From the NCBI GenBank assembly GCA_041178085.1, contig JBEGVZ010000043.1:39381-103380 (forward strand): 64,000 nt of DNA, written 5' to 3'. The stretch is from Pseudomonadota bacterium. Lineage in GTDB: Bacteria; Bdellovibrionota_B; Oligoflexia; Oligoflexales; RGVZ01. Of the stretch, positions 42,001-48,000 are shown piece after piece; the stretch's first letter is position 1, and each line of letters begins with the position of its first letter. Made by a program: the position numbers.

Positions 42001-45000
42001 GGTAACATTCAAACTCAACGGCAAGGACGTGACGGTTCCCAAGGGAACCACGGTCATGGAAGCGGCGCGCCGCGAAAAGGTAGAGATCCCTCACTTCTGC
42101 TGGCATCCGGGACTTTCCGTGGCCGGTGTGTGCCGCTTCTGCATGGTCAAGGTCGAGGGTCGTCCAAAACTGGAAATCGCCTGCAACCTGCAGGCAACAG
42201 ACGGCATGGACGTCAAGACCAGCACCGACGACACGAAAGCGGCTCACAAATGGGCGCTTGAGTTCCATTTGATCAACCATCCACTGGACTGCCCGATCTG
42301 TGACCAGGCAGGTGAATGCGGCCTTCAGGACTATTACATGTCCGTTGGCAAGTACCACAGCCAGATGACCAGACCCAAAGTCCTGAAACCCAAAACCCTC
42401 GACGTAGGCAAGGATCTTGTCCTGGATACGGAGCGCTGCATCTTGTGCTCGCGCTGCGTGCGCTTTGAGGAAGAAGTCACGAAAACGGGCGCTCTCGGCA
42501 TCTTTGACCGCGGCGACCGGGCCATCGTTGGAACTTATCCAGGCACTAAGATCGAGCACAGCTATCAGACAAACCTCGTCGACATCTGTCCTGTGGGGGC
42601 ATTCACTTCGCGCGACTTCCGCTTCAAGCAGCGGGTGTGGTTCCTGAAGGACAAGCCGGCCACTTGCCCTGGCTGTTCGACAGGCTGCAGTGTCGATGTT
42701 TTCGGCAAGCCGGAAACCCGGACCTACTACCGGGTGAAGCCACGGCAGGGCGAAGCTAACGGTCACTGGATGTGCGACAAGGGCAGGGACACCTACAAGC
42801 ATCTGAACCAGGAAAACCGCCTGCGCACTGCGCTTGCGAGCGATGCCAAGGGCAAGGTCTCGGAAGCGACCTTTGCCGATGCGATTGCCGATCTGGGTAG
42901 CCGCCTGGCTGCAGTCAATCCGGCCCAGGATGTTGCACTGCTGGTTTCTGCACAGCACACCAGCGAGGAGTACAAGTCGCTGTTTGACTTCTTTGTGCGC
43001 GAACTCGGCGTCAAAAAGGTCTACCAGTGGCGCGAGCCCGGCGAGAAGACAGATGCTTTCGACGGCCTTCTTCTGCGCGGCGACCACAACGCAAACACCC
43101 GCGGGCTTCAGGACGCACTCAAGGAAGCCGGGCTGCCTGGCGGCGTAAAAAATGAATTCGACGCCGTGGCAACGTCTGGTGCGAAGATTGTCATCGCCGT
43201 CACACCGGAAATCCCGTGGACCTTCCCGTCCCTTGAACGTCAACTGGACAGTTTATCTGAGCTGGGATTTGTATCCTTCTGGAGCGTTGCTGGTTCCTTG
43301 ACCACCCGGAAGAAGGTCAAGCATGCCTTACCGCTAAAGGGTTTTGCAGAGAAGAAGGGTACTTTCGTCAATCATGCCGGCAAGGCGGCGAAACTTGAAC
43401 ATCCTTTCCCGTGTACAGTCAAAGATGGACGGGATGTGACAGAGATCGTAGCTGCGCTCAAGCAGTGGAGGCAAAATCATGGCCGTCATTAAAGTCGCGC
43501 GTCCACCGGAAGACACCAACATCTTCTCCGCTGGCTGGGGTTACATCACCACAATCAGCGTCGGCATGTGGAAGACTCTGGTGATTTTCCTCAAGCAGCT
43601 TACGCGGATCGAAAAGACCAACACTCTGGAATGGCCGGAGCAGCCGGCAACCTACGGCGACCGCTTCAAAGGCAAGCATTTCCTGACGTTGCGCGATGAT
43701 GGCGAAGTTCGGTGTACTGCCTGCTTCTTGTGCGCCACAAACTGCCCTGCAGAGTGCATTCACATCGAAGCGGGCAATCATCCCAACAACGAGCTGGAAA
43801 AATTCCCGGTCCGCTTTGAGATAGACATCCTCCGCTGCGTATTCTGCGGTTATTGCGAGGAAGCATGCCCAGTTGACGCGATCCGCCTTGGTCCGGAATA
43901 CGCAATGACCGGACCGACAGGCGGCAAATGGGTTTACACGAAGGAATACCTTGCGGAACGCAAACAGCTTTCGGGTGGCATCGTCAGCGTGAAGGATGAG
44001 AACGAAAAGCATCCTATCGTAGAAGCCCCCAAGGAAGCCCGCTCTCCGAAGCAACTCAAGAGCTACGTCCGTCACGGACTCCATTGACGACCTGCAGGGC
44101 CTGGTCGAGGATCGACCGGGCTCCGGACGACTTGTCGACGAAAAGTCGCACGCACTTGGGCCAGTTCCGACGCTGGGCGTGGATGTCAGGCCTGCTGCTG
44201 ACGATCACGACCGGAATATCAGCGAAGAAAACGTCCACATATTCAGCAATCTCAGCGCCTGTAAACTTTTCAAGAAAGTAGTCCAGGATTGCGCCGTCAT
44301 AGCCAGAGAGCTTCCCGACCCGCCCAAGGGACTCAAGGGATGGAGCCCAATCGCAGCCCACGCCACGCACCTCCGCAAGAGCCTTCATGATCTTGCCAAA
44401 GGCGGGGTCATCATCAATGACAAGGATCTTTAGCGCCTTTGAGGCCACCATAAAAGCCTCCCGGGTTGGTCAGGACACTCCATGGTGTGCTGCAGTTTTC
44501 CTGCCAAAGATCGCCCCGGCCGATGAACAATTCCTCCGCTCCAAAGACATGGCAGGCGCGCCCAAGAGGCCGCTGAGGTGTCCTTGACAGCCCCCGCCTG
44601 CAGGAGTAGGAACCCCCTATGAAATTTGACGTTTTTCACTCCATCGGACGCATCGACTCCCTGCCGGTCCGGCTGACTGACCGACAGGTGTTTGACGGCT
44701 TCTTTGAGCAGTTACCCCTCGCTGATGAGCTCGGTTTTGGCACCATGTGGGTCGCGGAAACGCACTTCTCAAGCGAAGTACAGAAGCGCCACACCAAGCC
44801 GGTCATCCCGCATTACCGGGGTGAAATCGGAATCAATTGTGATTCGCCACAGCTTTTTCACGTGATGACTTCCCGCACCCGGCGGATTGGATTCGGCACA
44901 GCCATCTACAATATCGTTGGCGGATCGGGCGGACCAATTGCCGCAGCGGACAGGATGCGTTCGCTTGCCTTCCTCAACCAGTTCGCAATCCAGCCTAGAC

Positions 45001-48000
45001 GCCTTGAGATCGGTTTTGCATCAGGTCGCTTTCCGTTCATCAATCGACCCTTCGGCATTGTCCCGCGAGACGACTTCGAAGTAGCAAACTGGCAGGAATG
45101 CAGCCGGTTGATCCTGTGCGAGGCGACCGAGGTTTTCCTGCGCCTTGTTGCAGGGGAATCCATCAGCTCTGAACAGATCACGTCACGATCCTATGCAAAT
45201 GGCACACCTTACAAGCCCAGGTGGAATTTTGAAGAATTGATGCTGGTTCCGGCCTTGGCTCCCGAAGTCGCTGAGAGGATGAGTTTCGTCCTCGGCTCGC
45301 ACGATCCGGCAGCCCAGGAAACCGCCCTGAAGTGGGCCGACTGCGATATTTTCAACCTGAGCTTCACCGCACCTGACCAGATCGATGCTGTTCACGCTGC
45401 CATGCAAAAGCGTTACGAGAATACAGATCGCCACTGGGGCCGGCACAGGATGCCCAGGACTGTCTTGATCTTCATCGACGACACAAGCAAAAAGGCTCAC
45501 GAACGCGCAAACCATTGTTTTGACACATACATCGAAGCCATGCGCGGGACTGCAGCAGTACCAGACAAGTCTGTACTGATGGAGCGCGCCCTGATTGGTG
45601 ACCCGCAGGAAATTCTGGCACAACTGTCCCCGGACAATCCTCGGCGACTGCACAGGGATGACCGACTGATGCTCTGGTTTGAATTCAACCAGGCGGACAG
45701 CCATGACATCTGCCGGCAGATGAAGTTGTTCTCTCAACAAGTGATGCCCCATGCTCCATAGGCTGCCGACGGTCTTCATGTTTTCGCGGAAGCAAGTACC
45801 CGAAGTTGCCGTGCAGGGGCTGGTCGCGCTGCGGCAACTGGATGGCGGAACGTTCTCAAACGCCCCTACCAACCTTCAGTTTGTGACTCGTTCACTCCTG
45901 AAGCCCTGGCAATACCTGGCAGCAGATGTTGGTAATCGTGAACCGTTCTGGGCCCTTGCTTTTGCCAGCCACTCTGCACAACCGCCGCAAATCGATGCCT
46001 TGCAAAAACTTGCTTCAGAAGCTGGCGTCAATGAATCAAGCCTGATTTGTCCAAGGGCGTGGCCTCTTGATGCGATGGCGGCGATGGCGATGCGGATGAA
46101 AGGCGAGACTCAGACGCGTCTTCTGCATCCATGCTCAGGCAAGCACCTTGCTCTCCTTGCCGCCTGCCGTCATCACGGCCATCCAGTGGAACAATATTTC
46201 AGTCCGGATCATCCGGTGCAAAAGCGACTCTACAACCTGGTTGGCCGCGAAGCCGGAGAAAGACTTGAATGGCTGACGGACAGCTGTGGACTTCCGGTCG
46301 CCGCAATGTCGGTCGACGGGTACCTTGGACTTTGGGACAAGCTGGCAAAATCAAACGAACCGCGGGTGCAGGACTTGAAGGCACTTTGGCTGGCAAATCC
46401 GCGCCTTGTTGGAGGCGTCAAGCGCTTTGACTCCGACCTGATGGAGGCTTTCCCCGGGCGGCTGCTCGCCAAGGAGGGGGCTGACGGCCTATTGGTGGTG
46501 CATATGCTACCTGTCGGGGGCGAGGGGCCAGCTACCTGTTTCGTCAAGGTTTCGGCCGGATACAATCAATCCCATCTGGCGCTGGCATTGCTCAGCCTGC
46601 TGCAGCAAAGCCAACGTAACCATCCGCTTGGAAAATCGCTGGGCGACCTGAACGAGTACTTGCGTTCACGGCAAGATGAATGGATCCCAGGCGATCAGAA
46701 CTTGTCACTGGCCCCATTCGCGTGATCGGCCAATGAACAAGCTCCGCTTCAAGGTAAAAGACGGCTTCTCAGGCACGCGCCTGGACCAATTTATCTCCCT
46801 TCAGGGGGTTGAACTTTCAAAGCGCAAGATCAAGGAAGTGATTGACGCTGGTGGCGTCTATATCAACGGCAAACGCGCACGGATCGCGTCACGTCCGGTC
46901 AATGACGGTGACCTGATCGAGATGCAATACAATCTTGAGACGTTGAAGAAGATCAAGCAACGCGAACACGAACTGGAAGACAAGGATGTGCTCTTCCATG
47001 AAGGGGACGTCATCGCGGTAAACAAGCCGCCGGGACTGCCCACCCAGGCGACCCGTGACCAGGCACTGGTGCATCTTGAGGCTGCGGTGAAGAAGTACCT
47101 TGCGCGGAAGCCTGGATCTCCAAATGCTCAAAAGCAGGCTGCAATTCATCTGGTGCACAGGCTGGACAAGGAAACCAGTGGAGTCGTCCTGCTTGCTTCA
47201 TCGACCGCAGCGACGACTTTTCTGACGGAGCAATTCCGGCAGCGGACGGTGAAAAAAGAGTACCTCGCGATCTGTTCAGGAATTCCGGATCAGAAGAAGT
47301 TTGTCGTCGAATGCTTTTTGTCACCAATCGACCGCAAGACTGGCAACGTTTCCGTCGTGCGCTCGGGTGGAAAACCGTCCAGGACAAGTTTTGAAGTTCT
47401 CAAGACAAATCCGGCACTGAAGCTTTCACTCATCCGCTGTCTGCCAGAAACAGGCCGCAGTCACCAGATCCGTGTCCACCTTGCGCATGCCGGGTTTCCA
47501 ATCATCGGGGACAAACGTTACCTGCGCGGGAAAATCAAATTACCCGTCGCTTTGGAGGCCCTCGCTGCGGAACATCACTTCTTGCACGCCTTGCGACTGA
47601 CTTTTGCCCCGGCCGCCGGTGCACGGGAAGTAACTGTTGAGGCAAGCCTGCCGCCTAATTTCACCGGATTCCTTGAAAACAGCTTGTTAACAGATAAACG
47701 ATAGTTCTGCGGCCCGGGCAAGCTGAAGGCGGAATGTAGGCAGCTGAGCTTTAGTCATGCAGCGGTTGTTGCCTCTTGGACCGAGACACTACGACAATAA
47801 TGAGCAACCAGCAGATATTGCAGGATAATCAGGCTTTTCTTTAAAGCAATCCCGGATTGTCCCGATCTACCCGTTGGAACGACCCGACACCGCGCGGAGA
47901 CCTTCATGCGCCCCGGCACACAGATCCTCGTGCTCCTTTTGAACCTGTGCGTCTTCGCACTGGCGGGATGCTTGAAGAGAACTTCGCCAAGCTCCGGGGG

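Follow-up and report, generated by a model that had tools for sequence, protein, structure and literature searches.

The classical kynurenine pathway (TDO to AMD) breaks down tryptophan by way of KMO, kynureninase (KynU), HAAO and ACMSD, and the side chain is released as alanine. The 2-aminophenol pathway is encoded by the amn/cnb clusters and by the ARO microcompartment of Micromonospora (PMC10470539), which have AmnB/AmnA, a dehydrogenase, a deaminase and, in some, AmnE/F-like proteins in common with the genes described here. Nitroaromatics, or a precursor still unknown, feed those clusters, whereas the feed proposed here is tryptophan. According to PMC10470539, nitrobenzene and chlorobenzene degraders are the only organisms demonstrated to use this pathway, and the Micromonospora precursor is given as unknown. 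Terms such as luciferase, asparaginase, tryptophan and kynuren did not occur in its main text, with a similar result in its text supplements, and the same kind of term look-up in the LB400 amn paper was without a match. The literature searched on the pathway and on aminoacetophenone oxidation, represented mainly by the opening parts of abstracts, contained no description of the route that we propose.

Partial precedents exist for the two enzymes under study, a luciferase-like flavin monooxygenase (LLM) and an asparaginase-II-like hydrolase (AsnII). Type II two-component FMN Baeyer-Villiger LLMs (diketocamphane monooxygenases, the Caenibius progesterone LLM and AbmE2) share the TIM-barrel fold of our LLM at ∼15% identity; none was found acting on an amino-acid aryl ketone, and luciferases and RslO1 fit our model slightly better. 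Adjacent genes for SAPMO and an esterase in Comamonas testosteroni KF-1 convert an aryl ketone to a phenol and a carboxylic acid (PMC3746432). That system acts on a xenobiotic, its hydrolase is a carboxylesterase, and SAPMO has another fold, being a single-component FAD enzyme. In fold family, in both Ser-Lys tandems, in Arg47 and in its Cys/Lys/Cys zinc site, AsnII resembles the Rhizobium etli enzymes ReAV and ReAIV. It differs from them in being paired with an oxygenase and frequently fused to KynB, in the replacement of Asn134 at most LLM loci, and in its proposed leaving group, 2-aminophenol instead of ammonia.

The window, a stretch of 64,000 nucleotides, carries the LLM gene (g00890; 44619-45761, + strand, 380 aa) and, starting 11 nt inside its end, the AsnII gene on the same strand (g00891; 45751-46725, 324 aa), which encodes a class 3 asparaginase-like Ser-Lys hydrolase. 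A Shine-Dalgarno-like AGGAG/AGGA (44602-44611, +), read from the sequence, lies 5' of the LLM start. The pair sits between nuo genes on one side and a gene for an RluD-type pseudouridine synthase (46733-47704, +; PF00849 and S4) on the other. A promoter scan gave no sigma-70-like site at the locus, and terminators were near chance level. Both ORFs are real: LLM passes PF00296 (51.6 bits versus a cut-off of 27.9; E 1e-13) and AsnII passes PF06089 (174 bits; E 4e-51).

The survey's finding was that this pair forms the missing middle of a tryptophan pathway. As far as pathway placement alone is concerned, we consider it very likely that LLM and AsnII belong to tryptophan breakdown without kynureninase, since independent profiles in two classes, the fusion of AsnII to KynB and a four-gene swap in one operon frame all support it. 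Of three corrections that the claim needs, one concerns the window: by a quick tree method, the AsnII of the window is a member of an RluD-linked clade that is also found without LLM. An RluD-like gene is present in 28 of the 46 genome loci and also adjoins AsnII copies that have no LLM; RluD is a conserved neighbour of this AsnII clade and probably not a pathway member.

The remaining genes were said to be scattered through the host genome, and we found them in it, the pathway being spread over four places. The putative TDO (C100:1503-2363) passes PF03301 (243 bits) and scores 311.8 with the TIGR03036 equivalog, below its cut-off of 390.7. KynB, on C68, scores 224.1 bits with TIGR03035 (cut-off 223.05) and matches 4COG at E 3e-49; the HxGxHxD metal motif is kept in fused as well as free KynB copies. 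AmnB/AmnA lie on C94 together with SDR and ALDH. The end of C60, with RidA and the start of ALDH, is identical to the end of C94 over 121 bp, and this exact overlap makes the two contigs one locus. AmnB is close to solved 2-aminophenol dioxygenases (3VSG, E 8e-132; 7TXY, 5e-116), and H13, H62, Y129, H195 and E251 are kept in 30/30 homologs. With an alpha/beta LigB pair and these five beta-subunit residues, AmnBA has the features of a 2-aminophenol 1,6-dioxygenase. Consistent with the survey's view that the KMO-kynureninase-HAAO route is replaced, tblastn with queries from relatives gave no match to KynU, KMO, HAAO or ACMSD at E 1e-3 in this genome, which is 96% complete.

The single operon reported in relatives, SDR-LLM-AsnII-ALDH-AmnB-AmnA-RidA-KynB, is complete in L060, L061, L062 and L072. 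A second correction is that LLM, AsnII and KynB also form a unit in genomes in which AmnB was not found. RidA is fused to AmnA in the copies tested. L144 and L210 show the arrangement AmnB-AmnA-RidA-ALDH-AmnF/E-like pair-LLM-AsnII:KynB, with TDO nearby. TDO itself lies in 14/46 genome and 14/80 metagenome LLM loci. AsnII accompanies LLM in 40/41 and 46/50 loci having at least 1.5 kb downstream, and it is fused to KynB in 17/46 genome loci and 8/80 metagenome loci. This fusion was confirmed by Pfam in all eight long ORFs tested, with the KynB metal motifs kept. KynU, KMO, HAAO and ACMSD were absent from all 154 LLM loci examined, some of which are repeats of one genome. LLM stands alone in several metagenome loci of 8-18 kb.

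The classical pathway has the same operon frame in sister genomes, and its TDO/KynB entry and its exit by a semialdehyde dehydrogenase and a RidA-type deaminase are shared. HAAO operons read SDR-ALDH-(RidA)-HAAO-ACMSD-KynU-KMO and LLM operons SDR-LLM-AsnII-ALDH-AmnB-AmnA:RidA-KynB; next to SDR, ALDH and RidA genes common to both, LLM, AsnII and AmnBA stand where the other operons have HAAO-ACMSD-KynU-KMO. SDR belongs to the LLM operon, as had been claimed, but it is not specific to the 2-aminophenol route. It is present in 15/15 HAAO genomes and 54/62 LLM genomes, and directly upstream of ALDH in 10/12 HAAO loci, which places it in the shared lower pathway. Its presence in all the HAAO genomes rules it out as the reductase of LLM or as a route-specific enzyme; as an enzyme common to both routes, it is a candidate for the reduction that follows 2-aminomuconate.

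We profiled 116 genomes of the host's class (≥80% complete); these are kin, and the counts are not independent, for which reason Fisher tests overstate the association and are not relied on here. LLM was present in 62, AmnB in 59 and both in 57, while HAAO occurred in 15 genomes with no overlap with the LLM/AmnB set. Kynureninase was over the cut-off in 17 genomes, two of which (G060 and G064) also have LLM. TDO, common in the class (85/116), was found in 61 of the 62 LLM genomes, and only 1 of the 31 genomes without a TDO match has LLM. Exactly one of the LLM and HAAO sets is present in 76 of the 85 TDO genomes. The counts given earlier on 131 genomes, kynureninase being mostly apart from LLM and TDO nearly always with it, are therefore reproduced in pattern. 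A phylum-wide search returned genomes of the same class only and, taken as a repeat query, gave a concordant result. In a second class (32 genomes), LLM and KynU were each found in 13 genomes without overlap, and LLM was present in 8/8 AmnB genomes. Nine LLM genomes (G007, G009, G117, G119, G142-G145 and G269) hold the LLM-AsnII-KynB unit and no AmnB was found in them, which leaves the product of the upper unit without a visible sink there. A search for HAAO in five genomes without AmnB gave no match, and neither did its controls. Few genomes in the class of G117 have LLM (2/301 sampled).

LLM is the sole PF00296 gene of the host genome. It belongs to no named NCBIfam LLM subfamily, being under every NCBIfam cut-off (best 23.9 bits versus 412.9). 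Its predicted model (pLDDT 93.9) has the TIM-barrel luciferase fold, and its nearest folds are luciferase alpha, 8CBB and RslO1 (Z 30-31), with 1BRL_A superimposing at Z 31 and an rmsd of 2.7 over 321 residues. The 3,6-diketocamphane monooxygenase (5AEC/4UWM; Z 27) comes below the luciferases and RslO1. All these neighbours, the putative epoxidase RslO1 included, are only 13-21% identical, and the predicted fold does not single out Baeyer-Villiger chemistry. We propose that LLM is a kynurenine or N-formylkynurenine Baeyer-Villiger oxygenase. Inspection by eye of the LLM neighbour clusters gave no conserved flavin reductase. The host genome is without PF01613 and has one PF03358 gene and two nitroreductase genes; an unlinked reductase has precedent among LLM-family Baeyer-Villiger enzymes (PMC12239570).

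ReAV matches the AsnII of the window at E 6e-17, and equivalents of R47, S48, K51, S80, C135, K138, H139, D187, C189 and K263 are kept (residue roles from PMC12292245 and PMC11024299). Asn134 of ReAV is Pro in the window copy; this position is Asn in only 4/98 AsnII copies at LLM loci and replaced in the other 94. The Ser-Lys tandems and R47 are intact in 102/102 LLM-associated copies. As R47 of ReAV binds the alpha-carboxylate of the substrate (PMC12292245), its retention fits an aspartyl donor, and AsnII is proposed to hydrolyse a beta-aspartyl derivative of 2-aminophenol, either the anilide or the ester, with release of aspartate. Four operon copies are missing both zinc cysteines, which ReAV requires. 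A term look-up in PMC13451416 gave nothing on substrate range. LLM and AsnII trees (103 pairs) have the same three clades (Mantel r 0.86, without a species-tree control). Fifteen AsnII copies have no LLM partner. Nine of them are intact, three of these in HAAO genomes, as the survey had noted for some such genomes; the other six lost K51 or S80. Decay of LLM-less copies is weak as independent support because these six form one clade.

From the observed genes, families, conserved residues, linkage and distribution we infer the reactions of LLM, AsnII and SDR as follows, giving the whole scheme, in which kynurenine or N-formylkynurenine undergoes Baeyer-Villiger oxidation before aspartate is released, a probability of about 0.6. 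TDO would give N-formylkynurenine, from which KynB would strip the formyl group. LLM, with O2 and FMNH2 from an unlinked reductase, would insert oxygen into the bond that joins the ketone to the aminophenyl ring in an aryl-migrating Baeyer-Villiger or Dakin reaction. The resulting beta-aspartyl ester of 2-aminophenol would be expected to rearrange, giving N4-(2-hydroxyphenyl)-asparagine. AsnII may then form a beta-aspartyl-serine intermediate and release L-aspartate and 2-aminophenol, so that the side chain would leave as aspartate where the classical pathway gives alanine. AmnBA, the semialdehyde dehydrogenase and the RidA-type deaminase would lead to 2-oxohex-3-enedioate, which might be taken onward by AmnE/F-like enzymes or, in most LLM genomes, by SDR. 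LLM probably acts after KynB; action before it is possible, with roughly half that chance. The route as proposed has no 3-hydroxyanthranilate, and would thus supply no quinolinate for NAD.

Another reading that fits the gene set, and the fact that KMO and KynU exclude it, would be that LLM is an analogue of KMO making 3-hydroxykynurenine, with AsnII cleaving the aspartyl group by C-C hydrolysis before or after ring opening by AmnBA. AsnII adjoins AmnB/AmnA instead of LLM in L076, L095, L156, L184 and L189, as this would suggest. In L070, L071, L206, L207, L031 and L043, however, AsnII is intact and KynB-fused or -adjacent where no AmnB was found; prior ring cleavage is not needed, and the LLM-AsnII-KynB unit kept without AmnB places AsnII before that step. 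AmnB is also a near relative of enzymes acting on plain 2-aminophenol. In 3-hydroxykynurenine the hydroxyl stands meta to the acyl group, a position from which it does not activate C-C hydrolysis, and LLM-type flavoproteins do not usually hydroxylate rings; we regard this alternative as unlikely. If the alkyl group migrated instead, LLM would make O-anthraniloyl-serine and AsnII would split it to anthranilate and serine, the pair replacing kynureninase. Both the kynureninase exclusion and the AmnB-less genomes with the upper unit would be explained, but electron-rich aryl groups migrate preferentially, anthranilate is not a substrate of AmnBA, and the operons contain no second oxygenase. Moreover, the asparaginase site would be expected to attack a beta-aspartyl carbonyl, and the serine ester carbonyl is further out. 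This makes the anthranilate route very improbable.

It is also conceivable that LLM acts in tryptophan catabolism while AsnII is an ordinary asparaginase or a broad amidase, the real step being another, for example oxygenolysis by LLM alone. RutA is among the structural neighbours of the LLM model, and RutA-type members of the fold cleave amides unaided. The nine intact AsnII copies without LLM, as well as the absence of a class 1 asparaginase from the host genome, point the same way. Against it stand the near-constant company of LLM, the KynB fusion and the co-divergence with LLM; a gene of the class 2 asparaginase family is present in the host, and Asn134 is scarce in the LLM-locus copies. 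We hold this to be improbable. That the cluster degrades some other aminoaromatic, the TDO/KynB link being circumstantial, would agree with the dispersal of the genes in the host, with TDO being common in the class, and with the nitrobenzene-type compounds handled by characterised amn clusters (PMC10470539). It is highly improbable given TDO within LLM loci, KynB fused or adjacent, and the division of TDO genomes between the LLM and HAAO sets with the lower genes in common.

With somewhat better than even odds, then, Dakin-type oxidation of kynurenine by LLM and a repurposed class 3 asparaginase make up a further aerobic tryptophan route, widespread among predatory bacteria and others that are uncultured and, going by Atlas clusters, among marine archaea. 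If so, tryptophan, one of the twenty amino acids, would have a catabolic route not described before, and two enzyme activities would be new. Tryptophan would be the natural source for the 2-aminophenol pathway, known to date from nitrobenzene degraders, and 2-aminophenol would have a natural origin; lineages without a ring-cleaving dioxygenase would retain the aspartate, with 2-aminophenol or products of its oxidation being excreted. The family is large: of 8,000 candidates scored, at least 4,903 protein clusters match at E 1e-30.

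The genes for the luciferase-like flavin monooxygenase (LLM, P0001; contig positions 44619-45761, + strand, 380 aa) and the class 3 asparaginase-like hydrolase (AsnII, P0002; 45751-46725, + strand, 324 aa) overlap. LLM matched PF00296 (51.6 bits) and no NCBIfam subfamily in the profile search, and AsnII matched PF06089 (174 bits) and class 3 asparaginases of Rhizobium etli (E 6e-17). An RluD gene borders the pair on one side; a gene for a small response regulator and the nuo genes lie on the other. As no tryptophan gene adjoins it in the window, its link to the pathway rests on the remaining genome and on relatives. 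The regulator, a stand-alone receiver domain (44056-44451, − strand), is divergent from LLM and separates the nuo cluster from the pair; five close relatives have a comparable ORF upstream. Three ORFs lie in 50887-55578 (− strand): one is small and lipoprotein-like and bears a CxxCH motif, and the others encode 415 and 998 aa. Similar genes come after the LLM-AsnII-RluD unit in close relatives.

The survey's finding had placed this pair in tryptophan degradation. The rest of the genome, the loci of relatives, the counts across the class Oligoflexia and an operon swap supported this placement. The pair is real, and we estimate at about 0.88 the probability that it belongs to such a pathway. It consists of known folds assembled into an undescribed route; our literature searches found no description of an LLM-AsnII tryptophan route, and the paper on the 2-aminophenol microcompartment (ARO) of Micromonospora states the precursor of 2-aminophenol to be unknown (PMC10470539).

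Within the same genome we found tryptophan 2,3-dioxygenase (TDO) on contig C100, kynurenine formamidase (KynB, above the TIGR03035 cut-off) on C68, and 2-aminophenol 1,6-dioxygenase (AmnB/AmnA), SDR and semialdehyde dehydrogenase (ALDH) on C94, all where the survey had located them. The end of C60, carrying a RidA-type deaminase gene and the start of ALDH, overlaps C94 by 121 bp, giving a single locus in which RidA-ALDH-SDR faces AmnA-AmnB. Queries from relatives yielded no match in this genome to kynureninase (KynU), KMO, HAAO and ACMSD of the classical route, or to AmnE/F. P0001 is its sole LLM. Family searches found neither a PF01613 reductase nor a class 1 asparaginase; they did find two nitroreductase genes and one gene each of PF03358 and the class 2 asparaginase family. 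No linked flavin reductase was recognised when the clusters of LLM neighbours were inspected by eye.

Among 46 LLM loci from genomes, AsnII was present in 45 (fused to KynB in 17 of these), TDO in 14 and AmnB in just 3. The fusion was confirmed by Pfam in all eight long ORFs tested, and both fused copies (31) and free ones (22) retain the KynB motifs. Among the 80 best metagenome matches out of 527, many of them on short contigs, AsnII was present in 53, KynB in 16 (8 fused), AmnB in 15 and TDO in 14; where at least 1.5 kb followed LLM, AsnII was found in 46 of 50 metagenome loci. Several loci of 8-18 kb had LLM without any partner gene. KynU, KMO, HAAO and ACMSD were absent from all 154 LLM loci, a number that includes repeats. 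Three layouts recurred: SDR-LLM-AsnII-ALDH-AmnB-AmnA:RidA-KynB; AmnB-AmnA-RidA-ALDH-two AmnE/F-like genes-LLM-AsnII:KynB with TDO close by (L144, L210); and, as in the window, LLM-AsnII-RluD with the remaining genes elsewhere. The nearest named records for the relatives are from Oligoflexales and other Bdellovibrionota MAGs; names of homologs include Myxococcota, Planctomycetota and Alphaproteobacteria MAGs, and Atlas clusters include Thermoplasmatota. AmnA and the RidA-type deaminase form a single fused protein in L060 (5518-7053), L061, L063, L096 and L097, in several via a long linker. Divergent, stand-alone second LLM copies (∼31% identity) occur in L065 (G095:C58) and L067 (G101:C133), the latter with an internal stop.

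We surveyed 116 genomes of the class, each at least 80% complete; because these are kin, we give counts alone, which are not independent. LLM was present in 62, AmnB in 59 and both in 57. HAAO was found in 15 genomes, with zero overlap with LLM or AmnB. Kynureninase exceeded its cut-off in 17: all 15 genomes with HAAO, as well as G060 and G064, where a lone KynU (L112, L113) accompanies the LLM operon. TDO was found in 85 genomes (61/62 with LLM, 15/15 with HAAO) and AsnII in 76 (61/62 and 6/15, respectively). In another class, that of genome G116 (32 genomes), LLM and KynU occurred in 13 each with no overlap, and all eight AmnB genomes also had LLM. Two TDO matches contain in-frame TAG stops, two in G045:C222:4189-4986 and one in G011:C11:20310-21086, which may reflect a pseudogene, an error or match overrun.

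HAAO loci were fetched from 12 of the 15 HAAO genomes, and contained KynU in 12, ACMSD in 11 and KMO in 10; in 10, SDR and ALDH lie upstream of HAAO. The same SDR family, common to both routes (L084, L100-L110, L003:5834-6601), is present in 15/15 HAAO and 54/62 LLM genomes, and is absent from all 10 loci with the AmnE/F-like pair (not all independent). Therefore, LLM, AsnII, AmnB and AmnA occupy the place of HAAO, ACMSD, KynU and KMO, and the two routes share the upper and lower genes on either side. By its distribution and gene context, SDR is a lower-pathway enzyme and a candidate reductase after 2-aminomuconate, probably reducing 2-oxohex-3-enedioate or 2-aminomuconate toward 2-oxoadipate. 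Reduction toward 2-oxoadipate in eukaryotes is described as long unresolved in a 2026 preprint (10.64898/2026.06.05.730449). Three HAAO operons have a ∼273-aa gene between ACMSD and kynureninase (L100:5121-5939, L101:8279-9094, L109:8044-8874); the one copy tested had no NCBIfam match at 1e-10, and it is possibly another type of formamidase.

In kynurenine, an aminophenyl ring bears an aspartyl group linked through the beta-carbonyl. In the proposed pathway, a single oxygenase and a single asparaginase-type hydrolase, with neither a PLP enzyme nor a decarboxylase, would have to convert it to a substrate of a 2-aminophenol dioxygenase. Oxygen would be inserted between ring and carbonyl, the resulting beta-aspartyl ester would become an N4-aryl asparagine by an O-to-N shift, and its hydrolysis would release aspartate and 2-aminophenol. 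By analogy with established chemistry, we somewhat favor this scheme. The predicted LLM product, C10H12N2O4 ([M+H]+ about 225.09), would be an isomer of 3-hydroxykynurenine. Precedents are an LLM that carries out Baeyer-Villiger oxidation and whose reductase is unlinked (PMC12239570) and an aryl-ketone monooxygenase beside an esterase gene (PMC3746432). The predicted LLM model (pLDDT 93.9) has the luciferase-type barrel. Its closest structures are luciferase alpha, 8CBB and RslO1 (Z 30-31), and 3,6-diketocamphane monooxygenase scores Z 27; this modelled fold allows Baeyer-Villiger chemistry and is no proof of it.

Rival mechanisms are told apart by one observation, intact AsnII in AmnB-less genomes. 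No AmnB match was obtained in LLM genomes G007, G009, G142-G145, G117, G119 and G269, and G142-G145 have no LigB-family genes whatsoever. The loci that we read from AmnB-less genomes (L070, L071, L206, L207, L031, L043) carry an intact AsnII, either next to KynB or fused to it. On this ground AsnII likely acts before ring cleavage. These genomes are MAGs, so some absences of AmnB may be assembly gaps, as exemplified by G121, where AmnA lies at a contig start. AmnB-less lineages show no visible sink for the LLM-AsnII product. The AsnII-KynB fusion fits formyl removal in either order.

AsnII residues R47, S48, K51, S80 and K263, whose functions we take from PMC12292245 and PMC11024299, are retained by each of the 98 distinct copies at LLM loci and by 4/4 additional ones that LLM genomes carry. 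Among the 102, four copies, the operon AsnII of L098, L156, L184 and L189, have a remodelled Ser/His/Asp zinc site (C135S, K138H, C189D) with Asn134 kept; all adjoin AmnA. All five active-site residues that PMC5291488 names for the Comamonas AmnB are kept in 30/30 homologs. For 103 LLM-AsnII pairs, both trees split into the same clades (∼40, 32 and 31). In one genus, LLM is window-type in four genomes (58-64% identity) and operon-type in four (44%); AsnII is also operon-type in one of the latter.

For 15 copies of AsnII there is no partner LLM; nine are intact and six, forming one clade, have lost K51 or S80. As the RluD-linked group of the window's AsnII includes most LLM-less copies, this protein may have a second role. 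The RluD-linked clade without Lys51 and/or Ser80 (L080, L081, L082, L087, L091, L092) keeps the full ORF and is a possible pseudoenzyme; its hosts are HAAO-route genomes, LLM-less genomes, or genomes with a second, operon-type copy.
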